Counted from the first letter of the stretch, positions 24,540 to 41,026 are shown. The stretch is 64,000 bases of DNA from Escherichia coli (GCA_005400705.1 GCA_005400705.1_4079.1); one strand, 5' to 3'. Program-made: numbers and translations. The notes: generated by a model from the letters alone, not told the origin.

Positions 24540-24874
24540 TGGAGTACTTTATTGATTTACTGCCGTGGTATATGAAAGTTAGTACTTTGTACTATATTAT
24601 TAGTGCTGGATTCTACTTTCTGATGTGGTTCTTTAAACGACCAATTTCAGTATTCATCGCTGATAACATGCTGCAATTAAAATTACACGCATGGTTTGGT
24701 ATGGCGATGATTATGCCTATTATTCACTACTCAATGATTAGTAGAGGTTTCCGTTCTAATGGTGAACCAATTGTATTAGTATTCTATTGGGGTTCAACTA
24801 TTGCATATGTAAGTTTGTTGTTGTTCCCAGTCGTTCATAAGTTACGTGCTAAAATTCCTGATGCGAGGTACTAA
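24536..24874 (+). CDS. small multi-pass membrane protein (family M)
   Basis: 112 aa, C-terminal LRAKIPDARY. Confidence 0.5.
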   Translation: MMEYFIDLLPWYMKVSTLYYIISAGFYFLMWFFKRPISVFIADNMLQLKLHAWFGMAMIMPIIHYSMISRGFRSNGEPIVLVFYWGSTIAYVSLLLFPVVHKLRAKIPDARY

Positions 24875-25188
24875 TGGATATAGTAACATTGATTTACACG
24901 TTGTATTCATTCTATTTCATTATGTGTTGGGTTGGATTTTTATTTGTACTCAAGATGTTTGATTATGTTGAAAAACAGATAAAAGAATTTTGTATTCCTT
25001 TTATCGGTTCAACCATTATTAGTGTTTCTTGTGTGTATTTTTTGGTTTTTGATCCACCAGATAACACTGCAATGATTGACTTGATGTTACTACCAACAAC
25101 TGTTACTTTTTTATGTAGTCTGATGCCGCCGATTAGCCGTGGACTAACAGAATTTAGACGCAATCAAAAGCGTAAACGAGGGATGTAA
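24874..25188 (+). CDS. small multi-pass membrane protein (family M)
   Basis: 104 aa, basic C-terminus. Confidence 0.5.
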   Translation: MDIVTLIYTLYSFYFIMCWVGFLFVLKMFDYVEKQIKEFCIPFIGSTIISVSCVYFLVFDPPDNTAMIDLMLLPTTVTFLCSLMPPISRGLTEFRRNQKRKRGM

Positions 25189-25556
25189 TGGAAATTGCTC
25201 TTATTATCTTAACTGCTATGCTGTTTATTAGTACTGTGGTTATAATTGGTAAATTCTTTTGTGTATCATTTTTAGAAACGGTATACGATGAAATTGCTGA
25301 TGATTATGAATTACAAGCCGGATTTTTCATTACGTATTGGCTTAGTTTATTTTGTCTAGTCATTGCTTGGATTTTACATATCTTTAAATGGGGTATGGTA
25401 GACGGTGATCCTATTATGGCAATTATTGTTCTAGTGTTTGGTATCCTTGGTGGTGCAGTGCATAATCTAATGGTTATCTGGCAAACTGTTCAATATGTTT
25501 TGGTTCCCTATTTCGAAAAGATGCACAGTACAATTAAAAAACGTAAACGAGGTTAG
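25188..25556 (+). CDS. small multi-pass membrane protein (family M)
   Basis: 122 aa, basic C-terminus KKRKRG. Confidence 0.5.
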   Translation: MEIALIILTAMLFISTVVIIGKFFCVSFLETVYDEIADDYELQAGFFITYWLSLFCLVIAWILHIFKWGMVDGDPIMAIIVLVFGILGGAVHNLMVIWQTVQYVLVPYFEKMHSTIKKRKRG

Positions 25557-25557
25557 T

Positions 25558-25920
25558 ATGAACGGGATAGAATTATCTTTCGTTGGTCAATTACTAGTAA
25601 TGGCGTATACATTTATCTTCTCACTGAATGCATTCGTGTGCATTGGGAAGTACTTCCATAAGCGACCATTATCAAATATATATGATGTAATCCAAAAGAG
25701 ATATAGTCCAGCATATACTGTGTTGGGTACAGTATTCAATTTTGGTTTTATTGTATTAATAATTGGACTGTTCACATCCTCTTTGAATACAATAACCTTC
25801 GGTCTTATGATATGTTCATTGGTATTAGCCGTAATTATATGTTGTTTAGTACTACACCTTGTGATACTATTATATATAAAGATCTCTGAAATCCACCAAC
25901 GTTTGGGTATGAGGAAATAA
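25558..25920 (+). CDS. small multi-pass membrane protein (family M)
   Basis: 120 aa from ATG 25558. Confidence 0.45.
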   Translation: MNGIELSFVGQLLVMAYTFIFSLNAFVCIGKYFHKRPLSNIYDVIQKRYSPAYTVLGTVFNFGFIVLIIGLFTSSLNTITFGLMICSLVLAVIICCLVLHLVILLYIKISEIHQRLGMRK

Positions 25921-25921
25921 T

Positions 25922-26293
25922 ATGAGTTACCGTGAGATATTTTCCATTATTTCAATTATTATGTTCAGTACTGGAACACTGGTATGGTTATTATATTTCT
26001 TCTGTATTAATCCAGTGTATAATATGTTATGTAATATTAAATCAAGTGCCGGATATATCACTTTTATGGTCTTTATGGGATATTATTGTCTAAGCATTTT
26101 AGGTGTTGTTTTGGTTGTTATATTTGATGTGGGGCCAAATAGTGATGGTATGGAAATACATGAATTAATAACCATGTTTGGATGTATGATACCAACAGCA
26201 CTACTGTTTGTAGCTACTGGTAGTGGATTGATAAAATTATATAATTATTTAAAATCCATTCATAATTCCATTCATAATAAGCGTATGTCATAA
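25922..26293 (+). CDS. small multi-pass membrane protein (family M)
   Basis: 123 aa, hydrophobic. Confidence 0.5.
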   Translation: MSYREIFSIISIIMFSTGTLVWLLYFFCINPVYNMLCNIKSSAGYITFMVFMGYYCLSILGVVLVVIFDVGPNSDGMEIHELITMFGCMIPTALLFVATGSGLIKLYNYLKSIHNSIHNKRMS

Positions 26294-26335
26294 TAAAAAA
26301 TCCAGTACTATTAAGTACTGGATGTATAAGGAGTT

Positions 26336-26998
26336 ATGATGAAATCAAAATTAGGTTTGTTTTATAAAAACTATTTTGTTAAACAACGTAAATTTATAAA
26401 AAAATATTTCTCTGGTGAGAAGTCTAGTCCTATAATTTTTAAAAGACCAAGTTATAATACTTACTTAGCTTGTGCTAAACAGTCTAAGAAATTTATTACT
26501 CTTTTAAATAAAAACAAAATTAAAGCTTCTTATGTTGAAACGAGAAGAAACTCATCAATAACTCCTGGTGATTTTATTGAGTACGGATGTTTCAATATTA
26601 AGTATAATGATAATACATACTTTATGGATATTGATTGTAATACATCCAATCTTTTTAACATTGTAGTAAATCCATTAAAACAATATAATGTTTATGGTGA
26701 TTCTATTATCAAATTAATCAAAAACAAAGATGGCTTTGATTTTGAAATAAATGTTTTAGATGATAATTTTGACGAAGTACCCGTAAACCCTGAAATCTGT
26801 GATATTTTAAACAGTTTAAAAGGTAGTACCTACAATATATCATCTGATTTAATGTTTCAGTACTCATTAATCCATAAAGATATTGAAAAGTATATTGAAT
26901 GCTCCAGAATTTTGAATTTTCTCTATGATGAATTTAAAAAGAGTTCTAAAATAACTGCATACACTTTGTACAATATTCCTAAAATGGTGAATCTTTAA
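26336..26998 (+). CDS. hypothetical protein
   Basis: 220 aa, RBS aaggag; 3' end converges on the minus-strand array. Confidence 0.55.
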   Translation: MMKSKLGLFYKNYFVKQRKFIKKYFSGEKSSPIIFKRPSYNTYLACAKQSKKFITLLNKNKIKASYVETRRNSSITPGDFIEYGCFNIKYNDNTYFMDIDCNTSNLFNIVVNPLKQYNVYGDSIIKLIKNKDGFDFEINVLDDNFDEVPVNPEICDILNSLKGSTYNISSDLMFQYSLIHKDIEKYIECSRILNFLYDEFKKSSKITAYTLYNIPKMVNL

Positions 26999-27604
26999 CA
27001 AATACAGTACTGGCAACTCCACCGTCTGTAATATATTGTCCAGTACTGTAAATTTGTATACCATCGGTTAAGTAAGTTCTGTATAAAGTTGCTGTAACAT
27101 ATACGTTATTCATATTCATCTCTATTGGTAGTACACATTTGGTATAGGCCGACACATCTGTTTGTGTACCTATACCCAATTGACCTGCGTTATCGCCTGT
27201 GTTATTACCAGTTGCGTAAACACCCAATGAAGTTATAATATGATTAGAAAAATATGAATAACCCAAACTCTTGAGATTCTCTACTGTACAACGTACCATC
27301 TGACATAAGGGCAAAAACTGTTGTATCAGATGAAGCTATTTTTGTTACAGAAGGTTGTATGTTCTGTTTTGATGATGTGATAATTCTTCGAAAGGGTAGC
27401 ATTGTATCCTCCAAATGTAAATCATTATTATATTTAGGACAAAAAAATGCCAGTACAAGGCACTGGCATAAAATCTAAGCAGAAGGCATATCCTTCATCT
27501 TAATAAATGAAAATTGTGTACCAGTATTTGTGGTTCCAATTTCTTTATTTCAGGAAGAGTTGGTTTAATATTTCCGTACTTGACCATTCTTGCAAAAGGT
27601 AACA
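26979..27604 (-). pseudogene. decayed ninth copy of the RCC1-like leader-peptide family
   Basis: Intact start MLPFARMVKYGNI near 27604 hits a stop after about 35 codons; C-terminal fragment ORF 26979-27314 still has GQLGIG. Confidence 0.5.
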
Positions 27605-27678
27605 TAATTCCCTCCTTTTATTTGTTATACTATATTTAATACAAATAAGAAAGCCAGTATCAAGTACTGGCTTTTACA
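27605..27678 (-). promoter_or_regulatory. family cassette: hairpin GCCAGTA-CTTGA-TACTGGC, TATAAT-like element, AAGGAGG RBS
   Basis: Conserved block preceding each RCC1-like paralog. Confidence 0.5.
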
Positions 27679-28869
27679 TTACAATTGTCTAGGTGTATCC
27701 AGTACATATCTATTTGTACGAGGACCACCATCATCATCAGTTCCGGTTGAATATATATTTTTCATATCAGCAGTTAGGAAAGTACGATACGAACCGCGAT
27801 ATATTTTTATTTTATCATACATAGAATATGTTATTTCTGACGGCAATGGACATGCAGTAAATTTACCAATGGTAACATCAGAACCAACACCCAATGTGCC
27901 AGCATAACTACTCGCATTTAAACCAGTTGCATATACACCTGCACTCGTAACTAGTATACTAGATTGTGTTGGGTATCCAGTATGAATTGAATACAAAGTA
28001 CCGGGTGGTAAGGTTGTACTATTGTTTCCTAAAACTCCATTAACAGTGCTAGATGTAGTTTTATTTCCCCATGCTCCATTATTAGCTAATCCACCAACTA
28101 GAAACTGACGTGCTCCTGTATTTGGATTCTCCACTAAAGCACTGACTGAACCCATTGAGCATACAGTGTATTGTAACGTTTTTGTGTATGTTGTACTTGG
28201 CTGATATAAAGTATATTCATTATATAAAGTCCATGTAGTGCTGGAACTTATACCGGATGTACCACCACCAATATATAAATTATTTTGTGTATCAAAAAAC
28301 ATTGCACAGCTATTTGTTGACATTATTTGTGCAATATCAACATCTGGTGTTACAGCTTTAACAAATGAACCATCGGTTATTTGTTGAGTTTTTCCAGTAC
28401 CATCAGCGAATTGTTTAGCCCCACTCCAACCAGTACTCCATATTGTATTATTATCCATTAAGAAAGTAAACCACGTAGTACCTGCATACATCTGTTTAAT
28501 TGAAGTACTTGAACTTTGTGTGAACAAATTTTCAATATATTGGTTATAACTTAAAAATGATGTAGTACTAGTTTCTAAACCAATATGACTACCATATCCA
28601 CAATAAAAATAATTTAAGTCATTATCTTGTACTAACAAAGTTCCTTCTGACATCCAACAATCGTTAACGTTTTCTCTAATTAATGTCCATGTTCTTAATG
28701 CAGTGTTGTTTCCTCTCCCAAACTTCCCAAAACTATTATTGCCTCGTGCGTATAGTTGACCATCAGTATAAAGTACAACAACATCACTATTGATTGGTAT
28801 TATTTTCTTAATTTGAAGAGGCTCAGGTGTAATATTTCCATAATCAAACATTCTAACAAAAGGTAACAT
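27679..28869 (-). CDS. RCC1-like repeat (beta-propeller) protein with MLPFVRMFDYGN leader, paralog 1
   Basis: 396 aa from ATG with RBS aaggagg; G-x-F/L-G-x-G repeats; ORF-track extension MPVLDTG... reads through the upstream hairpin. Confidence 0.7.
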   Translation of the reverse strand: MLPFVRMFDYGNITPEPLQIKKIIPINSDVVVLYTDGQLYARGNNSFGKFGRGNNTALRTWTLIRENVNDCWMSEGTLLVQDNDLNYFYCGYGSHIGLETSTTSFLSYNQYIENLFTQSSSTSIKQMYAGTTWFTFLMDNNTIWSTGWSGAKQFADGTGKTQQITDGSFVKAVTPDVDIAQIMSTNSCAMFFDTQNNLYIGGGTSGISSSTTWTLYNEYTLYQPSTTYTKTLQYTVCSMGSVSALVENPNTGARQFLVGGLANNGAWGNKTTSSTVNGVLGNNSTTLPPGTLYSIHTGYPTQSSILVTSAGVYATGLNASSYAGTLGVGSDVTIGKFTACPLPSEITYSMYDKIKIYRGSYRTFLTADMKNIYSTGTDDDGGPRTNRYVLDTPRQL

Positions 28870-28939
28870 ATTTCCTCCTTTATTCATTATACTATATTTA
28901 ATACAAAAAGAAATGCCAGTATCAAGTACTGGCATAATA
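28870..28939 (-). promoter_or_regulatory. family cassette (hairpin, TATAAT, AAGGAGG)
   Basis: Near-identical to the other inter-paralog blocks. Confidence 0.5.
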
Positions 28940-30118
28940 TTATCGGTTAAATTTAAAATCTGTTATGTGTGTCCATGTATGATTTAATGGTGTACTCATT
29001 GGTGTAAAGCCAGCAGGGTCTGACAAAGCTGTACCACGTGCGTACATAAATTGATTGCCAGTACAATCCATTATAGCATAAGAACGTGTTGCTGTGCCAC
29101 ATTTGAACCCAACTGCACTACTTGGGGTCGGTAATACTTCAAATGTAGGTGCATTTGAACTACCACCCCCATCTTTTGTTCCAGCTATGTACAGAACTCC
29201 ATTAGTATCAATGATTAAGTTAGTCCAATATGCTTGTTCTCGACCAGCATAAAAATATGTTAAATCACCGGGTACAAATGGTAACGTTCCTTTATATATT
29301 GTGGTATTAACATTCACTGGTGCACCAGCTACACCCCATGAACTCATATAGTTTCTCCCACTTGCGTAGAATGTAGTTCCTTTACCGTAAAGTATTAATG
29401 TTGCTTGACTTGTTCGCATTGCATTATATTCAAACTCAGGATCATCAGTAGCGTCCTTAAAAATCTGTGTCCATGTTGTTATATTGCCAGTAGTTGTAAC
29501 ACCCATTTGATAATAATAATTATCACCAGTAGCATAGAATTCTTTAGGGCCAGTTTGTACAATTGCATTCCCATTAGTTAACCAAAAATCTAATGTATTA
29601 GTCTTGATCTTGGTTGGTGTGTAATTCGCCACGGTATTTCCTTTTCCGAAATAACCATTAGCGTTATTTCCATGACCCCATAAATCACCATTAGTTGTGC
29701 GTAGGAATAATGTACCAGTATTGAATCCAACTTTTTCTATAGTACTTATGTCAATACCAACAGCAGTGTACTTCGTTGTAAAATCTTGAAAAGTACTCCA
29801 ATAATTTGATGAACCATTAAACATGGTTTGTCTGCCAGTGTACTTCACTTTATTATCGTTAGTGATAAGTAATGTCCCCCACACTGACGCGAACATTAAC
29901 TTAACATTTTCCATAACAAAGTATGGCTTACCGTATGCTGACGCGGTAGTGTTTAAACCTAATAGTTGTCCATCATTACTACAACCCCATACTTCGCCGT
30001 TATCCAAAAGCATCAACATAGTAGGTTTGCCAGATGATACATCCAAAAAGAAATCTTTTGGTGTTGGTACACCAGGTGTGATATTCCCATAATCAAACAA
30101 TCTTACAAAAGGTAACAT
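28940..30118 (-). CDS. RCC1-like repeat protein with MLPFVRLFDYGN leader, paralog 2
   Basis: 392 aa; conserved leader and RBS. Confidence 0.7.
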   Translation of the reverse strand: MLPFVRLFDYGNITPGVPTPKDFFLDVSSGKPTMLMLLDNGEVWGCSNDGQLLGLNTTASAYGKPYFVMENVKLMFASVWGTLLITNDNKVKYTGRQTMFNGSSNYWSTFQDFTTKYTAVGIDISTIEKVGFNTGTLFLRTTNGDLWGHGNNANGYFGKGNTVANYTPTKIKTNTLDFWLTNGNAIVQTGPKEFYATGDNYYYQMGVTTTGNITTWTQIFKDATDDPEFEYNAMRTSQATLILYGKGTTFYASGRNYMSSWGVAGAPVNVNTTIYKGTLPFVPGDLTYFYAGREQAYWTNLIIDTNGVLYIAGTKDGGGSSNAPTFEVLPTPSSAVGFKCGTATRSYAIMDCTGNQFMYARGTALSDPAGFTPMSTPLNHTWTHITDFKFNR

Positions 30119-30189
30119 ATTTCCCTCCTTTATTCATTATACTATATTTAATACAAATAAGAATGCCAGTATCAAGTACTGGCATTATG
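30119..30189 (-). promoter_or_regulatory. family cassette (hairpin, TATAAT, AAGGAGG)
   Basis: gccagtacttgatactggc hairpin and tatagtataatgaataaaggaggg. Confidence 0.5.
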
Positions 30190-31299
30190 TTATTTTGGTA
30201 AATCAATTTTAGTAAAGACTGCAACATCTTCACTTGCTCCTGGTATTGCGTAATAAGAACCAGTACTATACACATCTCCATTTTTGGTTAATATCGATGT
30301 CAAACCATCACTAAAAAGAACATCCCTAATCTCACTAACTTCAACTGGTAATTGTAAATTGGTAGCACTATATATAGCACCAGTTTGAGAATTGTTTAAT
30401 CCCAAACCACGGTTCGCCCCAACACCCTTCTGATATGTACTAGTAATTACCATTTGTGTAGCAGTATTTAAGGCAGGTGAATTCGTCATAAACAACGGAG
30501 AACTATTAGGCAAAGTACTTACAGGAACGGCACGGAATGTAGTCGTACCTGAACTAAGAAAGTTTGGAGTTTGACCACATACGAAATATGATGTACCATT
30601 ATAGTAATTGAATGCATTACCACCAATGGCTGCATCGATTACACCAGAACTACGCAATCCCCAAGTGTTAATTTGTGTTTGGTTCCCCGTACCATGCTGT
30701 CCACTACTATTCCATCCAGAACTATATAGCTTATTATCTAATGTAAGATACATACTATCATTCGCATTGGTCATTACTTTACGAACGTTCGTAGCACATT
30801 GAGTTAATGTGTAAATTGATGAGGAACCAATACCCAAAGAACCACGATATCCATTATCTCCTGCACCATAGAGTACTGAATTAGTGCTAAGTACAAATAT
30901 TAAACCATTTGTACATACAATATTAGCAATTTCACTTACTGGTATAGCATTGGTAAACCAATTAGTCCTTTCAACTAATACAGTACTGTAAGAAGTAGTT
31001 GTAGAAGATGAGAACCAGTACGTTTGACCTGATGTCCATATCGTATTATCATTTTTAATAATAACAAGTGTACGATCACCCACGAAAAAATTAGAAACAT
31101 CTGTACTTACTAATATCCATGAAGATACCGTGTTGGTATTACCATTTCCAGATTCACCACCTTGATTTCTACCTATGTAATATAAATCATGTGAATCAGT
31201 CAATAAGAATTGACCTTGTGTAGAAGCACCAACTTTAATTATATTTTTAGGACCAGGTACAATATTTCCGTACTTAACCATTCTTGCAAAAGGTAACAT
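30190..31299 (-). CDS. RCC1-like repeat protein with MLPFARMVKYGN leader, paralog 3
   Basis: 369 aa; GSLGIG, GQHGTG motifs; only 10 nt downstream of paralog 4 (likely co-transcribed). Confidence 0.7.
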   Translation of the reverse strand: MLPFARMVKYGNIVPGPKNIIKVGASTQGQFLLTDSHDLYYIGRNQGGESGNGNTNTVSSWILVSTDVSNFFVGDRTLVIIKNDNTIWTSGQTYWFSSSTTTSYSTVLVERTNWFTNAIPVSEIANIVCTNGLIFVLSTNSVLYGAGDNGYRGSLGIGSSSIYTLTQCATNVRKVMTNANDSMYLTLDNKLYSSGWNSSGQHGTGNQTQINTWGLRSSGVIDAAIGGNAFNYYNGTSYFVCGQTPNFLSSGTTTFRAVPVSTLPNSSPLFMTNSPALNTATQMVITSTYQKGVGANRGLGLNNSQTGAIYSATNLQLPVEVSEIRDVLFSDGLTSILTKNGDVYSTGSYYAIPGASEDVAVFTKIDLPK

Positions 31300-31309
31300 A
31301 ATTCTCTCC

Positions 31310-32440
31310 TTAATTTAATAATGCCCCTGGCAAATCCACTTTGACGAATTGTGCATATGCTGAGGAATTTTGATCAAAGTTTGGTCCCAATCCATAAAAT
31401 GAGCTAATGCCGTCTTCATTTGTGTATATGATATAAACGTTCTTTACATCATTTCCGCATATAAATCGAATGTCTTTCGTTTGTGTTCCCGCTGGAACAT
31501 TACGAAGGTTCACAACGCCATTACTTGCATTGTTATCAGCCGACGCAATTGGTAATTGATTTTGACCATATTGACCACGCATATTTTTTGCATCTAAACC
31601 AAACACAGTATTTGATACCGCACCAACTTTCAAAAATGAACCAAAACTATTATTGAATGACTTTGGAAATGTACCACTATAAACACTTCTCCCATCTGAT
31701 AATACCGCTGAACTGAATTTCCCGTTATTCGATATGGCAAATTCATTGTAAGGAAGTGTACCCATTTTGGTATATACAGAATATGAATTAGTGGAAGTAT
31801 TATCAATAATCTTATTACCATTATATCCAATACCATACTGGTATCCGTCTGCATCTTGAACTATACACAAAGGACCACTTGGGGTTTGTGTCAACGAAAC
31901 AACACGTTCAACTTGTATATCACCAAATGTATTTCTTCGCCATGTTCTATCTATTATAGTACTAGTATTACCCAAAGATAATTCCACACTATATAATAGA
32001 TTGTTTTCAGTAAAAATGGCAACATAATATGCGTGGTTAATAACTTGCTTCATCCCAGCATCAATAACTTCCTGTGGAATATGATCAGTAACATCCAACC
32101 AATCAAGGTTAGATGATGCAATATCTGGAGTACTGAATTTGTCAAATCTAGTTGAGCCACAAACTAGCACTCTATCATCATTTGTCAAAGCCACTGTGCT
32201 AGTCTGCATATTAGAACTGAATGATTTAACATTACTAATGTTAGACTTGTACCAACCCTTATCAGCAGCACCCACCGTGAATCCGGTTCCCATTGATCCA
32301 CTTGTACTTGTACCATAAGCCCACATCTCACCACTATATGTTAGTGCCATACAGTGGCTTCCATTTGCTTGGAAATCCTTTATACCAGTGGGAGCAACCA
32401 CTGTATTCCCATAATCAAACATTCTAACAAAAGGTAACAT
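31310..32440 (-). CDS. RCC1-like repeat protein with MLPFVRMFDYGN leader, paralog 4
   Basis: 376 aa from ATG 32440 (RBS ggag); ORF-track start 32455 adds 5 codons without an RBS. Confidence 0.65.
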   Translation of the reverse strand: MLPFVRMFDYGNTVVAPTGIKDFQANGSHCMALTYSGEMWAYGTSTSGSMGTGFTVGAADKGWYKSNISNVKSFSSNMQTSTVALTNDDRVLVCGSTRFDKFSTPDIASSNLDWLDVTDHIPQEVIDAGMKQVINHAYYVAIFTENNLLYSVELSLGNTSTIIDRTWRRNTFGDIQVERVVSLTQTPSGPLCIVQDADGYQYGIGYNGNKIIDNTSTNSYSVYTKMGTLPYNEFAISNNGKFSSAVLSDGRSVYSGTFPKSFNNSFGSFLKVGAVSNTVFGLDAKNMRGQYGQNQLPIASADNNASNGVVNLRNVPAGTQTKDIRFICGNDVKNVYIIYTNEDGISSFYGLGPNFDQNSSAYAQFVKVDLPGALLN

Positions 32441-32515
32441 AACTAAAATCTCCATATAATAATTATAATGTATTTACAAAAAAATACCAGTACATATTTC
32501 AGTACTGGTATAATG
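32441..32515 (-). promoter_or_regulatory. family cassette variant (hairpin ACCAGTACTGAAATATGTACTGGT, TATAAT)
   Basis: Palindromic hairpin plus tataat. Confidence 0.45.
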
Positions 32516-33688
32516 TTATGGTAAAATAATAGCTTGTAACGAACTCATACCCAATGTTGGGACACTCGCCTGTGGTGCTGGTGCATTCACTTTTGGTGAT
32601 GAAACCGCATAAGTCATTCCTGTACCCAAATCTGGATCAAAAACTACAGAACAATAATCCCCATTGTATATAAGTCCATTAGTATATCCTTGTGCACTTT
32701 GAATGCATTTCGTGAACGTACCAATGTCAGTAGTGGCATTTATTAAGTTCCTCCCACGGTAGCCACAGGTGTATATGAAATTATCAACACCTATGTACAT
32801 ACTCGCAGAACCAGAAGAACTACATAGATAAGACATATAAGCACGCATGTTTTTAGGAGCAACTGACAATGTACCAGCATAGAATTTATTATTCATACTC
32901 GAAATATCACCATCACCCAAAGCACCAAAACTCCCCCAACCAGTACCATAATATCTCTTATCACTCAAGAATATAATACAGTTGTTATTACACATCTTGA
33001 CTTGATATATCAATGAAGGATCAACCCCAGGGAATGATTCAGTGTATGTTAGAACAGCCAGATCAGTACTAGCATTACATTGATGATATGTATTAGTACC
33101 AGCGGACAATATTGTACCATCAACTAATAGAATCCTCGAAGTGCCAGTACCAGCAATACAAGCAACAGCATTACCTGTATATATTTGTCTGAAAGTAAAG
33201 AAACCAACAGTCTTACTCCCCTGTCCACTCCAACCAGTATTATCAACACCACATGCCCATACTGAACCATCTTGCATGATCATCATTACACCATAGCGTT
33301 CTATCGAAATATAGACAATCTTCGTAGTATCAACTGCACTAAATCTAGAAGTTATATCAGTCCAAACCTTTACACTCACCGCCGTCGCACCGAAAGTAGG
33401 ATCTTCCCCTGCTATCATTATCCTACCATTGTTAGTCAGATACATTGTCTGACTATAACCAGTACTACAAAACTTAACACTATCAGTCTCTGGAACTTTT
33501 AACCACTCGTTGTAACGTGTTACGTTAGTGTTATTACCTAACTGATAATAGTTATTCATCCCAGATACATATAACACACCATCCTTTATTAAACTATAAG
33601 TCGCACTATAGTCACTACAGGTATAACGTGTACCCACAGGTCGCTCAACGACGTTCCCATAATCAAACATTCTAACAAAAGGTAACAT
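32516..33688 (-). CDS. RCC1-like repeat protein with MLPFVRMFDYGN leader, paralog 5
   Basis: 390 aa; GALGDG motif. Confidence 0.7.
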   Translation of the reverse strand: MLPFVRMFDYGNVVERPVGTRYTCSDYSATYSLIKDGVLYVSGMNNYYQLGNNTNVTRYNEWLKVPETDSVKFCSTGYSQTMYLTNNGRIMIAGEDPTFGATAVSVKVWTDITSRFSAVDTTKIVYISIERYGVMMIMQDGSVWACGVDNTGWSGQGSKTVGFFTFRQIYTGNAVACIAGTGTSRILLVDGTILSAGTNTYHQCNASTDLAVLTYTESFPGVDPSLIYQVKMCNNNCIIFLSDKRYYGTGWGSFGALGDGDISSMNNKFYAGTLSVAPKNMRAYMSYLCSSSGSASMYIGVDNFIYTCGYRGRNLINATTDIGTFTKCIQSAQGYTNGLIYNGDYCSVVFDPDLGTGMTYAVSSPKVNAPAPQASVPTLGMSSLQAIILP

Positions 33689-33768
33689 AATTAAATCTCC
33701 AAAATTAAAATAATTAGATAGTATTTACAAAAAATACCAGTACATATTTCAGTACTGGTATCGTAGCG
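33689..33768 (-). promoter_or_regulatory. family cassette variant
   Basis: Same hairpin type as 32441-32515. Confidence 0.45.
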
Positions 33769-34911
33769 TTAAAATGGCATCTTAACCTCTTTATATACTA
33801 ATATATCACCGGATAAACCAGGAAACGCAGAACCATTACCACATGCATATATAGTACTATCATTCCACACTGCTTGATGGTAATTGCCTATAGTACATTT
33901 ATAATTCGATAAATCAGTCACACCAGGTGTTAGTACATAATATACTGGTCCACTAGGTAAATTAAAATCAAATCTACCAAAGTAGTTCAAACCAGATGAA
34001 TAGGACTTGTCATTAGCAAATATTACAGTACCATCTTCTGTAAAAGAACTGTGAGAAATGTCTTTGAGATTGTTCACAACACCAGACGGTATTGATGTAT
34101 TCAACGTAAAGGACGTCAATGGTGCTGCACTTGGTGTGTTGTTCGCCGTGTAACCATAATATGCATAACCAGCTACATATACACTCGAATCTGAACAAAA
34201 TAAAAATGCACTCCTATAACCCAACCTAATACTCTCTATAGTCTTACTAAAAGTAACTTTAGTAAAGGTAGGAACTAAACCACTATATCCTACCCCACAT
34301 GTACCAAAATCATTCTTCCCAGTACTGTACAATTCGTTATTATTTGTAAGGTAAAATGACGCAGCAGCACCGCTATCTAAAGTACTGTAAACGTCTTTTA
34401 CATTACTCGCAATCAATTTAAATGCACTCAATACGGTAGCCGAACCATTGTTAGACAGCGTTGTTGAATCCGTGCCTTGTCCTATTGTATATAAATCTCC
34501 AGTACTAGTCAAAACAAATATACCATTAGTCGCCATAACAATTCTGTCATTCTTTAAATTAAATGAACTAAAAAGTGTACTTATATCAGTAAAGGTAGTA
34601 TAACGCCCACTCTGCCCTATACTCGATAAATTCCCACTCAAATAAACCTTATTATCATTACCAACAGCTACATAACAACCCCACCCAGCATATATCTGAT
34701 CAATGCCTTGTATCGGTATTTGTAACCATTCACTACCAGTTACCGAAGCAGTACTTCCAGTTCCAAGTTCACCAGAGTTATTAGCTCCGAATACATATAA
34801 ATTCCCACTATCCGATAAAACAACTGTATTACCAACTCCAGTTTTTATATCCTTGATACCATTCTTAGGAGCAACATTCCCATAATCAAACATTCTAACA
34901 AAAGGTAACAT
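33769..34911 (-). CDS. RCC1-like repeat protein with MLPFVRMFDYGN leader, paralog 6
   Basis: 380 aa; GELGTG motif. Confidence 0.7.
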   Translation of the reverse strand: MLPFVRMFDYGNVAPKNGIKDIKTGVGNTVVLSDSGNLYVFGANNSGELGTGSTASVTGSEWLQIPIQGIDQIYAGWGCYVAVGNDNKVYLSGNLSSIGQSGRYTTFTDISTLFSSFNLKNDRIVMATNGIFVLTSTGDLYTIGQGTDSTTLSNNGSATVLSAFKLIASNVKDVYSTLDSGAAASFYLTNNNELYSTGKNDFGTCGVGYSGLVPTFTKVTFSKTIESIRLGYRSAFLFCSDSSVYVAGYAYYGYTANNTPSAAPLTSFTLNTSIPSGVVNNLKDISHSSFTEDGTVIFANDKSYSSGLNYFGRFDFNLPSGPVYYVLTPGVTDLSNYKCTIGNYHQAVWNDSTIYACGNGSAFPGLSGDILVYKEVKMPF

Positions 34912-34983
34912 ATTTCCCTCCTTTATTCATTATACTATATTTAATCAAAAAGAAAAGCCAGTACTTGAGTACTGGCATAGTTT
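34912..34983 (-). promoter_or_regulatory. family cassette (hairpin, TATAAT, AAGGAGG)
   Basis: gccagtactcaagtactggc hairpin, tatagtataatgaataaaggagg. Confidence 0.5.
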
Positions 34984-36111
34984 TCAAAAAGGTAAATCAA
35001 TTTGCTTAGTAATAATAGTATCTAACGGTATTGAACACAATGAGAAATTCTTTCCACCCGTATTTTCAGGATTATATCCATTCATCCATACATTATTACC
35101 TTCGTAAAATGTATTCCAGTATAAAGCCCCACTATATCGTGTATTCGAATTGAACGATGGAAAGTTGAATTCTTGGAATGATGTAAAATATGGAATGGAA
35201 CTTGAACTACTTCCCGTAAATGGGGTATACCCAGTTGCTATTAGTTTGTTTGTATCTGCATTAATTAAAAATACAACACTAGTCGAATAGTCCAACGAAT
35301 CAGGATGATATATATTACTCATATCACCTATAGTAAAACCAACATCAAAAACTTTACTATGTGCACCACTACCAGCAAAAGTAGTTCCAGTTGCATATAT
35401 TTTATTATCAGATGTTATCATTACAAAACCAGCACCAGAAACAAAACTGCATTTTATATCATAAGATATATCATCAAACAACGGAACAAATGTGGTTGCA
35501 TCACCCGATGTTGCTTTAACTTGAAAGCTGTTATTTGAACCTGAACCATATACAGTTCCATCGTTTTTAATCTTAAACAATGTATCGCCAAGGTAACCGC
35601 CAAATATATTATCCACATTAGTGTCAAGTACAGTCCACGCTGAAACATAATTTTTATGTCCTAAACCTAATGCACCACTTCGATTCCATCCTCTTCCATA
35701 AAGTGTTCCGTCTTTCATTAATATAAATGCTGTATAACCACATAACATTTTTTTAATTTGGGTAACATCTATACCAGTGAAATACACACCCCAGTCAGTA
35801 TATCCTTGTTGGAAAGTATCAGAATTCGTGAATGCATATGTTGAACCTGAACCATATATTTTATCACCTTTAATAACAACGGAAAACAATCCTAACCATA
35901 AGTCATCAACTTCAGTTGTGATTTGTTGAACTGCTCCTAACGATACAAACTGTGTACTTAAACCCGCATTATAGTTTGAATCTTCACCGTGTGCATATAC
36001 AGTGCCATCTTGCATTAGAAACATTTCAAGAGTGTAACTAACAACACTTTTCTTTATATTATTAACTTCGATTATATTCCCATAATCAAACATTCTAACA
36101 AAAGGTAACAT
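34984..36111 (-). CDS. RCC1-like repeat protein with MLPFVRMFDYGN leader, paralog 7
   Basis: 375 aa; GALGLG motif. Confidence 0.7.
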   Translation of the reverse strand: MLPFVRMFDYGNIIEVNNIKKSVVSYTLEMFLMQDGTVYAHGEDSNYNAGLSTQFVSLGAVQQITTEVDDLWLGLFSVVIKGDKIYGSGSTYAFTNSDTFQQGYTDWGVYFTGIDVTQIKKMLCGYTAFILMKDGTLYGRGWNRSGALGLGHKNYVSAWTVLDTNVDNIFGGYLGDTLFKIKNDGTVYGSGSNNSFQVKATSGDATTFVPLFDDISYDIKCSFVSGAGFVMITSDNKIYATGTTFAGSGAHSKVFDVGFTIGDMSNIYHPDSLDYSTSVVFLINADTNKLIATGYTPFTGSSSSSIPYFTSFQEFNFPSFNSNTRYSGALYWNTFYEGNNVWMNGYNPENTGGKNFSLCSIPLDTIITKQIDLPF

Positions 36112-36183
36112 AATTCCCTCCTTTATTCATTATACTTTATTTAATACAAATAAGAATTCCTGTATCGAGTACTGGCATTCAAT
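36112..36183 (-). promoter_or_regulatory. family cassette (hairpin, TATAAT, AAGGAGG)
   Basis: gccagtactcgatacagg hairpin-like, tataatgaataaaggagg. Confidence 0.45.
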
Positions 36184-37332
36184 TTATTGTAAAAAGGACA
36201 TATCTACTTCTGTATAACTAAGAATGTTTTGACCAGCAATTCCACCCATTACTACTATTGCATACCCACAATAATATAATTTCCCAGTGTCCGTAAGTAT
36301 AAGTGAACCAGAAGGTGTTCTTACCAAATTACACGAACTATTAAAAGAAGTATACGAAGGAGTATAGGAGTACTGATCAATATTATTACCAACACCTAAT
36401 TGACCACCCCTATTCGAACCAGATGCATAAAGTACTTCATCTGCTTTGACAATATGTGATGCCATGTTACCAACACATGCATATACACCATATACCCCTG
36501 TACTCAATAATGTAGGAGTCTTGTATTGAATATCAGTACTAGTAGATGTTCCACCTGTGCCAAATTCATTACCATATTGTGCTCCGTACTGCTTCCCACA
36601 TGCGTACAAATTATTATCGGACTTAATAAAAAATGTACTCTGATAACTTACATCAAAATCTATAACATCCGAAGAAATCATCGTTACCCCAGTAATCGAA
36701 GTTTGATTACCAGTACCCAACTGGTAGTAATAGTTAAAACCACAACCCCATAAAGTATTATCTTCTCGCAAATAAATGTTACCAACAGCCTTTTTAACAG
36801 ATGTTATAGTACTGACCTTCTTGAAGGTATTAAATGAATCAATGTTAGTACCATCTCCAAAGGAGGATATGTTCGATGCGTTATTAGCACCACAACAATA
36901 TAATGTCCCATCCTTCAGTACTAAATTTACCTTCATATCATTAAAACTGCTCATATACTCAATATCAGATACACTAATACCACCTGATGTTATCCACGTA
37001 GTACAGTCCGTCCATAACGTCTTCCTATCAGTTACCCCAGTAAATGCCTCCGTGTTACCAGTGATAAACACTTTACCAGTACCCTTTTCTTCATACAATT
37101 GACAATCACTACTGTTATCTTCCAATAAAACCCTCTGTACATTCTCTGCACAAAGAATAAATTTACTCGATGCTACACCTGTTCCAGTACCCCAATTCGT
37201 CGCAGAAGATGCATACAACTTATGTGTTAGTGTATCATGCAAATACATAGAACCACTAGAATATATTTTAAAACGCCCAGAGTTGGTAGGTGCTTCATTC
37301 CCATAATCAAACATTCTAACAAAAGGTAACAT
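36184..37332 (-). CDS. RCC1-like repeat protein with MLPFVRMFDYGN leader, paralog 8
   Basis: 382 aa; GQLGVGNN motif; first gene of the minus-strand block. Confidence 0.7.
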   Translation of the reverse strand: MLPFVRMFDYGNEAPTNSGRFKIYSSGSMYLHDTLTHKLYASSATNWGTGTGVASSKFILCAENVQRVLLEDNSSDCQLYEEKGTGKVFITGNTEAFTGVTDRKTLWTDCTTWITSGGISVSDIEYMSSFNDMKVNLVLKDGTLYCCGANNASNISSFGDGTNIDSFNTFKKVSTITSVKKAVGNIYLREDNTLWGCGFNYYYQLGTGNQTSITGVTMISSDVIDFDVSYQSTFFIKSDNNLYACGKQYGAQYGNEFGTGGTSTSTDIQYKTPTLLSTGVYGVYACVGNMASHIVKADEVLYASGSNRGGQLGVGNNIDQYSYTPSYTSFNSSCNLVRTPSGSLILTDTGKLYYCGYAIVVMGGIAGQNILSYTEVDMSFLQ

Positions 37333-37375
37333 AATTCCCTCCTTTATTCATTATATCATATTTACCCCATAACCC

Positions 37376-37404
37376 TTGACATCCTTTCAGTACTGGTGTA
37401 CTAT
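37376..37404 (+). promoter_or_regulatory. candidate promoter TTGACA-17-TACTAT in divergent region
   Basis: ttgaca 37376-37381, AGTACTG in spacer. Confidence 0.4.
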
Positions 37405-37429
37405 AGAAGGAATATAAGGAGAACTACAC

Positions 37430-37657
37430 ATGACAGCTACACTTAAGTACTACATTAATACTCTAAATGAACTAGAGTACGCGAAGTTTCTCGCGGATTG
37501 TTCGTGGCTAATAGAGCTAAAAACACATAACAGTACTGGATGTAACCTTATGCTGAACAGTGCACTTGATACCCTTGTAGTGAGTATTTTACACAGCAAC
37601 ATCTGCGTGGATAGCAATAAACAATTATCAAAAATCTTAGTACTGGTAGCTATATGA
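37430..37657 (+). CDS. small protein, tandem family A
   Basis: 75 aa, RBS aaggag. Confidence 0.5.
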   Translation: MTATLKYYINTLNELEYAKFLADCSWLIELKTHNSTGCNLMLNSALDTLVVSILHSNICVDSNKQLSKILVLVAI

Positions 37658-37866
37658 ACACTATGAACATTAAACAGTACTACATCGATGCACTACCAAC
37701 AAAAGGTCTACGAGAAAGCCTACTGTATACACAAAATAATTTTATACACTACAAACGTTATCCTAAACTCCTGAACTCGTACAGGAATAATAACATAAGA
37801 AATGCTTTACAAGGGGTAGAAAGTATGCAATACTATTACATCCTTACCCTTTTAATCGAGTACTAA
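37654..37866 (+). CDS. small protein, tandem family A
   Basis: 70 aa; QYYIDALP N-terminus, C-terminal LTLLIEY. Confidence 0.5.
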   Translation: MNTMNIKQYYIDALPTKGLRESLLYTQNNFIHYKRYPKLLNSYRNNNIRNALQGVESMQYYYILTLLIEY

Positions 37867-37867
37867 T

Positions 37868-38053
37868 ATGTATAAAGAATTCTACTGTAGTAAGCTGCAC
37901 AAACAATACAGAGATTCATTTCCCAATGAACCTATGGACATGAATAGTCCCTTTTATAATTTTGACTTCAGACTGGAGACACGTTATGCAATAGAACATC
38001 AATTTCCTGAAACTAAGTACTTAGCTATCATGAACCTCATCTTTAAGTTCTAA
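37868..38053 (+). CDS. small protein, tandem family A
   Basis: 61 aa. Confidence 0.45.
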   Translation: MYKEFYCSKLHKQYRDSFPNEPMDMNSPFYNFDFRLETRYAIEHQFPETKYLAIMNLIFKF

Positions 38054-38274
38054 AAGAGTACTATATGAAAACTATGAACATTCATCAGTACTACTTAGAT
38101 ATTCTCCCTAAAGATGTGCAGAACATCCTTAAACAAGAATTCAGTACTTTAAAAAAACCTTAAAAGATCCGCACCGAATGTACTCATCCTGCACCAAATA
38201 AATGTAGTTGATAATATTCTACAAGGTGTACCAGGAACCGAGTACTTTAATATAGTAAGGCTAATTACATTACA

Positions 38275-38460
38275 ATGAATCATATAAGCTACTATTACCA
38301 AAAACTATCCGACCGAGACAAGTACAGCCACAACTCCCATGTATGGTACTACAAACGCGGTAGTATAAGGGACAAACAACATTACTTCTGTACTGCTATA
38401 AAAGAAACACTAACAACTAAGTACACGTACAGAGCAGTACTGAAACTTATTGATATGTAA
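38275..38460 (+). CDS. small protein, tandem family A
   Basis: 61 aa; C-terminal YTYRAVLKLIDM. Confidence 0.45.
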   Translation: MNHISYYYQKLSDRDKYSHNSHVWYYKRGSIRDKQHYFCTAIKETLTTKYTYRAVLKLIDM

Positions 38461-38470
38461 AGAGAATACT

Positions 38471-38656
38471 ATGAATACATTTGAGTACTATACAAATAAA
38501 CTATCTATGCCAGAAAGATCTCATCTCTATGTGTGGAGAAATGCGTATAAAAGCGGCAATAAACTTATACAAAGAAATTCCCTTACAGTGTGTACAAATT
38601 TAATTAAAGCAGAGTACCGCACATATATTGAAGTACTGAAACTAATCTCTATCTAA
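38471..38656 (+). CDS. small protein, tandem family A
   Basis: 61 aa from ATG 38471; C-terminal EVLKLISI. Confidence 0.45.
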   Translation: MNTFEYYTNKLSMPERSHLYVWRNAYKSGNKLIQRNSLTVCTNLIKAEYRTYIEVLKLISI

Positions 38657-38664
38657 GGTACTCT

Positions 38665-38844
38665 ATGCAAGAATTCTATATCTATAAACTTCAGCACAAA
38701 GATAGATACAACTATAATAAATTCCAAAGGTACTACACAGTCGGGAACAAAAGAGATAAAAAACGATACTTTCTATCATGTACAGTAGAAGCACAAAACG
38801 AAAAGTACACGTACAGAGAAGTACTGAAACTCATCTCAATCTAA
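38665..38844 (+). CDS. small protein, tandem family A
   Basis: 59 aa (below ORF-track cutoff); C-terminal YTYREVLKLISI. Confidence 0.4.
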   Translation: MQEFYIYKLQHKDRYNYNKFQRYYTVGNKRDKKRYFLSCTVEAQNEKYTYREVLKLISI

Positions 38845-38852
38845 GGAATAAT

Positions 38853-39032
38853 ATGCAAGAATACTATATAGAACACATAAGCATTAAAGACCGTTTCATG
38901 TACGACACCTTCGTGAAGTACTACAACCTGGCAACTAACAGTACTAAAAATATTAATCTCAATAGCTGCATTCATCACGCACTAACAAAAGATAATCCCT
39001 TCAGGGAAATCCTCGCACTAGCATCTGTATAA
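38853..39032 (+). CDS. small protein, tandem family A
   Basis: 59 aa from ATG 38853 with RBS aagga. Confidence 0.45.
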   Translation: MQEYYIEHISIKDRFMYDTFVKYYNLATNSTKNINLNSCIHHALTKDNPFREILALASV

Positions 39033-39042
39033 AGGAAACCAA

Positions 39043-39702
39043 ATGAAACTTAATGCACACAGCAAACAATACCTTAAGCACTTTAAGTACCTCAACAGTA
39101 TTCAAGCAGAATCTATTACATCTGCATATACGTATCACCCTAATGTACTAAAGAAACGAAATAAAAAGAAAAAATCCAGAAATGTTCTCGTATCTAAGAA
39201 CCTCAAATCGTACTTGAAGAAAAATAATATAGCTCTTGCTTTTATTAATATCTATAATACTGATTTAAAAGTATTGAGTACTAATACCAGCACAAAAGCA
39301 CTAAAGAATGCATCTATCTATATACACATGGATAATATCCCGTGCACTATAATTCTATCTTTCGGGAATGTATACTTCTTCGGGAATTGTAATAGCACCC
39401 ATGATATCAGTACTGCACAATTCCAAATCGGCGATATGTACTGCATGGGTTCAGAAAAAATACACGATAACATGCACTTCTTCCAAAAGCAACGTACTAA
39501 CGAAACTGATACAGTACTGCAATTCCTCAAAGAATTACAAAACAAAGAATTATCCGAGGAAGAAGAATTCATGTACAGTACTGTAATCGATAATCCAGAA
39601 CTCTATAAAAACGCGTACAATCTAACAAAACATGTACAGGAACTTATCAGTACTGATAAGAAATTTCATCACCTCATTACGTATATTTCAAACTATGTAT
39701 AA
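39043..39702 (+). CDS. hypothetical protein
   Basis: 219 aa, RBS aaggaaa; interrupts family A array. Confidence 0.55.
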   Translation: MKLNAHSKQYLKHFKYLNSIQAESITSAYTYHPNVLKKRNKKKKSRNVLVSKNLKSYLKKNNIALAFINIYNTDLKVLSTNTSTKALKNASIYIHMDNIPCTIILSFGNVYFFGNCNSTHDISTAQFQIGDMYCMGSEKIHDNMHFFQKQRTNETDTVLQFLKELQNKELSEEEEFMYSTVIDNPELYKNAYNLTKHVQELISTDKKFHHLITYISNYV

Positions 39703-39877
39703 AGAATACTACAAAGATAAAATCCCAATGCATCTACAACACCATATACCAAACGTTGCATTGGGTATCAAAGATCACGCAAAGATAATGTTCCAACAAT
39801 GTACTAAGTACACGCTCATATACGATGATAATCCATATATGCTGTACTACGTAGTAATGCTAACATTCAGGTACTAA
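39695..39877 (+). CDS. small protein, tandem family A
   Basis: 60 aa from ATG 39695; MYKEYYKDKIP ... LTFRY. Confidence 0.45.
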   Translation: MYKEYYKDKIPMHLQHHIPNVALGIKDHAKIMFQQCTKYTLIYDDNPYMLYYVVMLTFRY

Positions 39878-39878
39878 T

Positions 39879-40058
39879 ATGAATACTTATAAAGAATTCT
39901 ACCTCTCGTACCTTAATTCCGATATAGTAACATCCAATACATTCAGTACTAAAATTATCTATAATGAATTAATGAAAGAATGTATTAAAGGTGCTATTAA
40001 CCCTAAAGATACGTATGACTTGTACTATGCAGTACTAACCCTTGTTTTCACGAAATAA
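39879..40058 (+). CDS. small protein, tandem family A
   Basis: 59 aa (below cutoff); TAATATG overlap. Confidence 0.4.
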   Translation: MNTYKEFYLSYLNSDIVTSNTFSTKIIYNELMKECIKGAINPKDTYDLYYAVLTLVFTK

Positions 40059-40066
40059 CACATAAT

Positions 40067-40258
40067 ATGAATAACCACAAAGAATACTACATAGAGAAAC
40101 TCCCAATGTATCTCCAACACCTTGTACCAACAGAACCATTGGGTATAGAAAAAAACTACGAAAAAGACTACTTCATTCAGTGCACTAAATCCTCGATATA
40201 TATTGAAGACTATAATCGAGTACTGTATCACATCCTTTTACTAATATATAGGTACTAA
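40067..40258 (+). CDS. small protein, tandem family A
   Basis: 63 aa; C-terminal LLLIYRY. Confidence 0.5.
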   Translation: MNNHKEYYIEKLPMYLQHLVPTEPLGIEKNYEKDYFIQCTKSSIYIEDYNRVLYHILLLIYRY

Positions 40259-40259
40259 T

Positions 40260-40442
40260 ATGCACAAAGAATACTACACACAATTTCTCCCCAGCATTTT
40301 TGAACACTACGCCAGATACAAAGTCCCTATGGATAACGATTTGGCAGTACTGGGATTCAATAACTGCATAGAACGAAGTATAGAAAATAGTAGTAGTTAT
40401 GACCAGCTATATAACACTATCCTACTTATATTCAGGTACTAA
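40260..40442 (+). CDS. small protein, tandem family A
   Basis: 60 aa; C-terminal ILLIFRY. Confidence 0.5.
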   Translation: MHKEYYTQFLPSIFEHYARYKVPMDNDLAVLGFNNCIERSIENSSSYDQLYNTILLIFRY

Positions 40443-40443
40443 T

Positions 40444-40629: not shown

Positions 40630-40634
40630 CTAAT

Positions 40635-41025: not shown

Positions 41026-41026
41026 T

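Follow-up and report, generated by a model that had tools for sequence, protein, structure and literature searches.

The stretch of DNA analysed here, 64,000 nucleotides (nt) filed under Escherichia coli (GCA_005400705.1; hereafter the window), carries at positions 26979-37400 an array of tandem minus-strand genes, flanked by plus-strand gene blocks. Megablast of the window returned matches only to Asteriusvirus jumbo coliphages, e.g. 121Q, PBECO4, phAPEC6, BF17 and EJP2, and the match is mosaic, the top record covering 57% of the region at 90% identity. The array contains ten paralogous gene copies, eight of which are intact (p1-p8, 369-396 amino acids (aa)) and two decayed (p9 and p10). Here we explore the block of DNA that these copies have in common, which runs from an intergenic cassette into the first 12 codons (hereafter the leader); in p1-p8 the N-terminus encoded by these codons is MLPFVRMFDYGN or a close variant.

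All eight intact paralogs match RCC1 or RCC1-like Pfam models (PF00415, PF13540, PF25390) as well as phrog_4219. An AlphaFold2 model of p3 is a seven-bladed propeller (predicted template modelling score 0.80), with which Foldseek identified UVR8, RCC1 and the HERC2 RLD at TM scores of about 0.7-0.78 (UVR8 and RCC1 about 0.77) and E-values of 1e-15 to 1e-20. A homologous-protein search with p3 gave 11 matches, including a 97% ortholog (P0001). The distal array end (26979-27605) is decaying: p9 is a stub, a truncated ortholog of the start of phAPEC6 gp010, the N-terminus of which is MLPFGRMLKYGNIKPTLPEIKKLD, and p10 is a remnant, 98% identical to the 3' part of 121Q gp234. Genes and intergenic elements are listed below from the head of the array to its distal end; energies are those of the hairpins, z-scores are relative to shuffles and the basis of the assignment, where given, closes the line.

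37333-37400, minus strand: head-of-array control region with half hairpin CCAGTACTGAAAGG, TAAATATGATATAAT at 37350-37364 and AAGGAGG
36184-37332, minus strand: p1, RCC1-like, 382 aa, ortholog group 1 (open reading frame (ORF), Pfam, phrog_4219)
36112-36183, minus strand: p1/p2 cassette, type A, degenerate hairpin of only -4.7 kcal/mol (z -1.3), TAAATAAAGTATAAT at 36129-36143
34984-36111, minus strand: p2, RCC1-like, 375 aa (ORF, Pfam)
34912-34983, minus strand: p2/p3 cassette, type A, hairpin at 34957-34976 (-13.2 kcal/mol, z -5.0), T-run, TAAATATAGTATAAT at 34929-34943, Shine-Dalgarno (terminator scan)
33769-34911, minus strand: p3, RCC1-like, 380 aa, the copy modelled with AlphaFold2 (ORF, Pfam)
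33689-33768, minus strand: p3/p4 cassette, type B, hairpin at 33733-33762, T-run, TAAATACTATCTAAT at 33713-33727, GGAGATTT (terminator scan)
32516-33688, minus strand: p4, RCC1-like, 390 aa, type B cassette upstream (ORF, Pfam)
32441-32515, minus strand: p4/p5 cassette, type B, hairpin at 32484-32511 (-13.9 kcal/mol, z -5.8), T7, TAAATACATTATAAT at 32462-32476 (terminator scan)
31310-32440, minus strand: p5, RCC1-like, 376 aa, type B cassette upstream (ORF)
31300-31309, minus strand: p5/p6 spacer of 10 nt, GGAGAGAATT, Shine-Dalgarno only
30190-31299, minus strand: p6, RCC1-like, 369 aa, leader allele ARMVKYGN (ORF)
30119-30189, minus strand: p6/p7 cassette, type A, hairpin at 30162-30186, TAAATATAGTATAAT at 30136-30150 (terminator scan)
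28940-30118, minus strand: p7, RCC1-like, 392 aa (ORF, Pfam)
28870-28939, minus strand: p7/p8 cassette, type A, hairpin at 28913-28935 (-11.7 kcal/mol, z -4.5), TAAATATAGTATAAT at 28886-28900 (terminator scan)
27679-28869, minus strand: p8, RCC1-like, 396 aa (leader ATG at 28869; the mechanical ORF extends to 28935)
27606-27678, minus strand: p8/p9 cassette, type A, hairpin at 27650-27674, TAAATATAGTATAAC at 27624-27638 (terminator scan)
27495-27605, minus strand: p9, 36-codon stub (leader plus ~24 codons), ATG at 27605
27403-27494, minus strand: p9/p10 variant cassette, hairpin GCCAGTGCCTTGTACTGGC at 27447-27469, T-run, CTAAATATAATAA, GGAGG (terminator scan)
26979-27402, minus strand: p10, frameshifted and internally deleted remnant (MLPFRRII...) at the distal array end (three-frame translation)

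A preliminary description of this DNA had proposed that each paralog has its own near-identical cassette of hairpin, TATAAT and AAGGAGG followed by about 40 nt of identical coding DNA. The conserved block is present on the minus strand, far above chance: at no more than 2 mismatches, TATAGTATAATGAATAAAGGAGG occurs 5 times versus 0 in 100 shuffles, and ATGTTACCTTTTGTTAGAATGTTTGATTATGG 7 times versus 0 expected. When the eight intact genes are aligned by codon, nt identity is 93% over the first 12 codons and identical residues share their codon in 88% of cases, against 39% nt identity, 19% aa identity and 42% same-codon usage in the rest of the genes, where synonymous sites are near random. When the 5' regions of nine copies were aligned, mean identity was 90% over the 36-nt leader, versus 37% over the 54 nt behind it, so that the leader stands well above the 37-39% found beyond; it was 30% over the 35 columns ahead of the hairpin, and type A cassettes averaged 85% from hairpin to ATG. 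Since identity drops on both sides, the block is sharply bounded and measures ~100-110 nt from hairpin to codon 12. The common coding stretch is therefore real, its length being 36 rather than 40 nt. A cassette of its own was found for most copies but not for all, and in two classes: p1 has half a hairpin, p6 none, and the hairpin of p2 is degenerate.

Type A cassettes, located before p2, p3, p7, p8 and p9, consist of GCCAGTAC..GTACTGGC, a T-run and TTGTATTAAATATAGTATAATGAATAAAGGAGG, with the degenerate hairpin before p2, whereas type B, before p4 and p5, reads ACCAGTACTGAAATATGTACTGGTAT, T7, GTAAATAC.., then GGAGATTT. The head-of-array sequence before p1 is also found in 121Q, PBECO4, G17, BF17 and UE-S1, and the element of the p9/p10 variant cassette also stands at the end of the G17 array. 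Neither hairpin nor promoter motif precedes p6, which starts 10 nt behind p5; this is the closely spaced pair that had been described as paralogs 4 and 3, correctly so. The two genes are probably co-transcribed, and they are adjacent in BF17 and EJP2 too.

The strong cassette hairpins (-11.7 to -13.9 kcal/mol, z -4.5 to -5.8) have a T-run behind them and lie directly behind stop codons, and terminator-like sites were found at nine array gene ends. A terminator scan of 24000-42000 gave 19 sites where 6.8 were expected. The hairpins look like intrinsic (Rho-independent) terminators of the upstream gene, and the same sites were predicted by the annotators of G17, with ARNOLD, and of UE-S1. The motif TAAATA-N3-TATAAT follows 15-25 nt downstream of the hairpin and is nearly confined to the array, which holds 8 of its 10 matches in the window. 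Its second hexamer is TATAAT in 61 of the 74 cassettes collected from eight phages and TATAAC in 7 intact genes. No conserved -35 at proper spacing was found in the array cassettes, the TTGATA of some hairpin loops not being conserved. An ATAAATA late motif has been reported for CBB and GAP32, relatives that encode a gp55-like factor (PMC5259590). The TAAATA core resembles it, and GGTAAATA also occurs upstream of the single or first RCC1-like gene in GAP32 and an Erwinia phage, which makes late transcription of the array genes, of a gp55 / TAAATA type, plausible.

RNA comprising the 5' untranslated region (UTR) and the leader was, when folded, no more stable than shuffles (z -0.4 and +0.7), and an explanation by a riboregulator or structured leader was dropped on that account. 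An Rfam scan of 26000-38500 at E <= 1 gave four matches, all far below gathering scores, hence no known RNA family.

We compared the syntenic locus of UE-S1, 121Q, PBECO4, BF17, EJP2, G17 and the distant Salmonella phage Munch. Every leader-bearing gene was listed and bodies, i.e. the genes behind their leaders, were clustered at >=70% identity; the CMSTMSU locus (L003) was excluded, its assembly being frameshift-ridden. The seven Asteriusvirus arrays, that of the window and those of six phages, have 8-16 genes of at least 200 aa each, which fall into 36 ortholog groups in shuffled order; in the six phages the locus comprises 9-16 genes. Ortholog group 1, for instance, is first in the window, UE-S1 and 121Q, fourth in PBECO4 and EJP2, and fifth in G17. 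The closest relative differs from one window paralog to the next. The p4 body is 98.8% identical to that of EJP2; the p5 body is 99.7% identical to BF17 and 99.5% to EJP2 and is absent from 121Q, PBECO4 and G17; the p6 body is 99.4% identical to 121Q and only 86% to EJP2. The only relative of p2 among the fetched loci, from EJP2, is 70.6% identical, and p3 has no match among the fetched syntenic loci.

Purifying selection alone, acting on terminator, promoter, ribosome site and an essential leader and, through the demands of translation initiation, on the first codons, would make recombination unnecessary for such a block. Selection of the ordinary kind, on the protein sequence of an old leader, does account for part of the conservation: the MLPF leader is conserved as protein in GAP32, Eneladusvirus and Erwinia phages and in Munch, the copies of which are mostly translationally coupled and without cassette and have CCA, CCG or CCT as their Pro codon. 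The unstructured UTR-plus-leader RNA is what efficient initiation would lead one to expect, and leaders are still diverse inside most genomes. In Asteriusvirus codons 2-4 are fixed, synonymous sites included (TTA 79/80, CCT 80/80, TTT 78/80). As a complete explanation, selection is unlikely and largely refuted by the histories of leader and body, which differ. Over leader codons 5-12, orthologs of different phages, with bodies 90% identical at the aa level, show 80.8% identity, and non-orthologous paralogs of the same genome, with bodies below 30%, show 80.7%; for non-orthologs of different genomes the value is 76.5% (permutation of genome labels, p = 2e-4). Among 96 ortholog pairs, divergence is 19.2% in the leader versus 9.5% in the body, and in 76 of them the leader has diverged further than the body. 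Even for pairs with body divergence below 2%, codons 5-12 differ by 8.6% versus 1.1% for the body. The leader is thus decoupled from the gene body.

Leader alleles are furthermore linked to a synonymous choice at the Tyr codon, VK going with TAC (25:1), FD with TAT (16:2) and MN with TAT (7:0), and this linkage between a synonymous site and its non-synonymous neighbours, which selection alone does not account for, holds across unrelated bodies and genomes. Leader alleles behave as haplotypes that move as units. Identical 36-nt leaders occur in 4.6% of same-genome versus 1.2% of different-genome non-orthologous pairs, and in only 9.4% of orthologous pairs. Within-genome homogenisation is therefore real but partial, and the window, with four identical leaders among eight, is its strongest case.

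Breakpoints could be mapped inside the block, where flanking homology of modules stops, a further point against selection alone. One concerns p3 and its metagenomic ortholog L009, which are 99.6% identical over nt 33-1088 (4 mismatches) versus 9 mismatches in nt 1-32, and the cassettes of which belong to different classes, one to type A and one to type B. Inter-paralog homology ends at the same point as the 5' breakpoint, leader nt 32/33, which is what conversion by a neighbouring paralog would produce. A further 17 mismatches are found in the last 55 nt of this pair; neither the fetched loci nor the window supplied a donor for the divergent p3 3' tail. Around the junction of p5 and p6 the window equals BF17 through p5 to +13 of p6 and equals 121Q from -4 of p6 on, which places the p6 crossover between -4 and +13 relative to the ATG, within (A)TTATGTTACCTTTTG, i.e. 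inside ATGTTACCTTTTG; there is no hairpin there. Homology of p4 with EJP2 stops ~16 nt ahead of the p5 ATG. Gene conversion or cassette exchange by way of the 5' block, beyond shared ancestry, had been suggested in the preliminary description, and decoupling, haplotypes and breakpoints together support it.

These positions also bear on integron- or shufflon-like exchange, in which the CCAGTACT...AGTACTGG hairpin would be the recognition site of a recombinase or nuclease. Such a role would fit the conservation of the hairpin stem in sequence over ~60 cassettes, compensatory stem changes being seen only in the distant Munch, and the ~100-fold over-representation of the CAGTACTG palindrome in the whole window; site-specific recombination was also left open by the authors who described the promoter-early stem-loops (PeSLs) of T4-type phages (PMC4122927). 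The crossovers are scattered, however: one falls in ATGTTACCTTTTG, one at leader nt 32/33, one ~16 nt upstream of an ATG and one ~55 nt upstream of a stop codon, with none at one fixed hairpin position; p6 was exchanged without any hairpin, and in seven annotated phages neither the array nor its flanks showed a recombinase gene. Because crossover positions vary within the block, homologous recombination fits better than a single site-specific cut, and we consider site-specific exchange improbable. Recent tandem duplication, with the block as least-diverged remnant, or an assembly artefact of collapsed repeats, is very improbable: the tandem layout with its period of ~1.2 kb and the view of the phAPEC6 authors, who took the array as evidence of tandem duplication (PMC7247149), speak for it, but duplication is refuted by bodies of ~19% protein identity with near-random synonymous sites, paralog groups are common to genera-level relatives, and the array structure recurs in >35 independently sequenced genomes.

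The leader, with consensus MLPFxRMxxYGN over 12 residues and D, K, N, E or T at position 9, is not confined to propellers of the RCC1 type. In BF17 and EJP2 a Kelch-repeat protein carries array leader and cassette, and in 121Q, UE-S1, BF17 and G17 so does a 245-aa protein without Pfam match; when the two were aligned by hhalign to an RCC1 profile, only residues 1-19 or 1-22 aligned. A scan of IMG/VR with a leader-DNA pattern identified six loci, of which three were chance non-gene matches, two were 121Q and one was informative. The latter, a 378-kilobase (kb) jumbo contig (L017), has seven consecutive MLPF-leader genes, with bodies of Kelch (three) and Laminin_G_3 / ConA-like type (two) and two without assignment. 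Non-RCC1 genes with MLPF leader in relatives are located at L005 6645-7550, L006 12675-13571, L002 23726-24463 and L017 872-6140. GAP32 and Eneladusvirus phages of Yersinia and Erwinia, which have one or a few RCC1-like genes, carry the leader on these as well. In the AlphaFold2 model of p3, residues 1-15 have a predicted local distance difference test score (pLDDT) below 50 and no secondary structure, and a Pro-rich stretch comes next. A signal peptide, a lipoprotein signal and a propeller 'velcro' strand were considered as roles and rejected, the leader not being hydrophobic, occurring on non-propeller folds and being unstructured in the model.

Leader-bearing proteins have been found in virions of relatives. 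The structural proteome of phAPEC6 contains eight array proteins annotated as 'DNA condensation' or hypothetical, with 1-5 peptides each (PMC7247149), and six phAPEC6 virion-protein masses (41.39, 40.25, 41.36, 30.06, 39.30 and 41.23 kDa) equal the computed masses of leader-bearing genes of this phage. In GAP32, gp001, the leader of which is MLPFSRIIQYGN, is a virion protein (PMC5259590). The presence of one leader on unrelated binding folds, together with presence in virions, leads us to infer that the leader may address or anchor its cargo to the virion. The phAPEC6 authors speculated on an inner-body role and described unassigned 'hairy' fibres on capsid and tail (PMC7247149). Given the lectin-like and Kelch cargoes, a role of these proteins at the surface, in host interaction, seems somewhat more likely than an injected one.

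Together these results make it probable, in our judgement, that the array is a hyperplastic virion-accessory locus of an Asteriusvirus-type (RaK2-like) jumbo coliphage, subject to module exchange mediated by the block and to partial conversion. Each gene would be an autonomous module comprising TAAATA-N3-TATAAT, Shine-Dalgarno, 12-residue leader, variable propeller and a terminator that abuts the next promoter. As the terminator-to-leader block is the only DNA common to these ancient paralogs, it would serve as a portable homology patch. Homologous recombination in the block, at variable crossovers, would replace, insert, delete or reorder whole modules, between co-infecting phages and within concatemers, and short conversion tracts limited to the block would let a neighbour's version overwrite leader and cassette, resulting in partial concerted evolution. 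The leader itself would be kept at the protein level for addressing or anchoring cargo to the virion, in the manner of the leader that targets T4 internal proteins to the capsid, and the changing repertoire of binding domains would serve host interaction.

Several points weigh against this interpretation. Homogenisation within genomes is modest, at +4 percentage points identity on average, so exchange between phages, and not conversion inside one genome, could account for much of the pattern; in most genomes the leaders are of many kinds, e.g. 13 distinct ones among the 16 genes of BF17. A search of the fetched loci and the window gave no donor for a 30-nt mosaic patch near the p6 3' end. The invariance of TAAATA is partly circular, as cassettes had been classified by that very string. 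A generic sigma-70 scan of the region showed no enrichment (84 sites vs 95.9 expected) and so gives no support to reading TATAAT as a canonical -10; that the cassettes promote and terminate transcription is, like the class of their promoters, only a prediction. Failure of the model could explain the low pLDDT of residues 1-15, and the virion evidence comes from relatives of the window phage, with few peptides per protein.

More tentatively, and with somewhat less than even confidence, cassette and MLPF leader might constitute a general plug-in system of RaK2-like jumbo phages, with late expression, common virion docking and the block as recombination handle. If so, any ligand-binding domain placed behind the leader, be it RCC1, Kelch, ConA-like lectin or another, would reach the virion docking site, the leader would be a portable 12-residue tag for virion display or delivery, and its alleles might match each phage's docking partner. 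Were the leader a virion-addressing tag, it would offer a tool for protein display or delivery with jumbo phages, and the cassette a natural landing site for engineering.

Related repeats and a second gene family were observed elsewhere in the window. An array-type CCAGTACT..AGTACTGG hairpin lies outside the array at 26300-26323, between two plus-strand genes; it is annotated as a terminator in G17 and could act in both directions. Adjoining the array on the plus strand at 23854-26293 are seven consecutive ORFs of ~104-141 aa, often overlapping or abutting, hydrophobic and membrane-like, which form a second tandem paralog family that is kept in 121Q (gp224-232). The hexamer AGTACT occurs 299 times in window positions 1-64000 versus 21.6 expected (~14-fold), and the palindrome CAGTACTG 74 times versus 0.7. 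The motif forms the stems of the array hairpins and is also found in the spacer of the early-promoter repeats described below; there are 6.8 occurrences per kb outside ORFs of >=90 aa versus 3.2 inside them, and all three reading frames are represented. Density is similar in all related loci (L001-L012), and we found no paper on the motif, which may be a genome-wide site of protein binding, modification or nicking. Three copies of a 64-82 nt repeat with the end AGGTACTAATATGCATAAAGAATACTACACACAATTT at 40223-41053 may represent another small gene family with a common ribosome site and first codons. At 42435-42594, in the strand-switch region adjoining the first early-type promoter, is a short run of degenerate 8-nt periodic repeats with units GGATGGCT, AGACGGCT and AAACGGCT.

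Between 42000 and 61000 the plus strand has ~25 copies of a ~60-100 nt repeat, AAAAAGTACTTGCA-N17-GTATAATGTTTTACATCGAGAGGGGGAAATGGTTCTCCC (e.g. 50893-50951 and 57868-57964), that looks like a sigma-70-type promoter plus 5'UTR stem-loop before many small ORFs and resembles early-gene regulatory cassettes. Classic PeSL-like elements, consisting of a terminator hairpin with embedded -35 GGGTTGACTTCGGTCAGCCC (TTGAC) followed by TTTTGC-TATTAT or TATAAT, are located at 12167-12217, 15409-15459, 15592-15642, 16935-16985, 18020-18070 and 22946-22996, and at 51364-51414, 54739-54836, 57740-57837 and 60185-60282. Such an element is also present in G17 (L007).

No paper that we found describes, for Asteriusvirus, the cassette, the leader or an exchange of either; the genome papers mention only the number and variability of 'condensation' genes. 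The 'DNA condensation / RCC1' genes can be recast as a fast-turnover, leader-tagged, virion-associated binding repertoire, hence as candidates for functions in host range or surface adhesion.

Four known systems invite comparison. Bacterial and protozoan contingency gene families also have a short conserved 5' block beside divergent bodies that acts as recombination substrate. The array differs in lacking a silent-to-expression-site architecture, each copy appearing to be expressed itself. In multi-receptor phages such as CBA120, G7C and K64-1, conserved N-terminal anchors dock variable tailspikes or fibres and recombination there swaps the bodies. Those anchors are folded domains of ~100+ residues on trimeric beta-helix proteins, whereas the conserved part in the array is only 12 residues long, on monomer-like propellers.

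As to the leader, the internal protein (Ip) genes of T4 and other T-even phages are the closest known analogue. In both systems a short N-terminal leader of 10-12 residues is the sole similarity of otherwise unrelated proteins, which in the relatives of the array are RCC1-like, Kelch, Laminin_G_3 / ConA-like and unassigned bodies. Proteins of both are found in virions, for the array in those of relatives only, and the repertoire varies between close relatives. Differences are that MLPFxRMxxYGN has no conserved Glu cleavage site in its 12 residues, the T4 leader ending in a Glu at which the prohead protease cleaves, and that the array cargoes are ligand-binding folds of 25-45 kDa, whereas T4 Ip are small anti-restriction proteins. 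We know of no resemblance between MLPFxRMxxYGN and the T4 leader. The Ip genes are located in hypervariable loci and have the packaging leader alone in common (Repoila et al. 1994, as cited in PMC12373910); their products are packaged in the capsid and injected together with the DNA.

As to mechanism, the closest known relative of the array block is the PeSL of T4-type phages, a composite of terminator and promoter at which recombination shuffles the genes of hyperplastic regions (Arbiol et al. 2010, PMC2839356; Comeau et al. 2014, PMC4122927). Recombination between neighbouring PeSLs also gives rise to excised mini-circles. Both are compact, short intergenic combinations of a stem-loop terminator and a promoter element, predicted ones in the array, and both are repeated in a hyperplastic region, with junctions of gain, loss and replacement inside the element, in the arrays as well. 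Variable crossover points, consistent with homologous recombination, are a further likeness. PeSLs carry consensus sigma-70 early promoters (-35, spacer of 17 +/- 1 nt, -10, AT-rich UP) and flank unrelated, non-essential ORFans, whereas the array elements have TAAATA-N3-TATAAT without a proper -35, flank one family of leader-tagged virion proteins and belong to a RaK2-like jumbo phage rather than a T4-type one. In addition, the array repeat continues through the ribosome site into 36 coding nt. Cassette-mediated modular shuffling as known from T4-type phages is thereby extended to RaK2-like jumbo phages in a new form, in which the recombination handle includes the coding sequence of a shared leader peptide; what goes beyond PeSL logic is the extension into coding sequence, the variety of folds among the cargoes and the potential for engineering.

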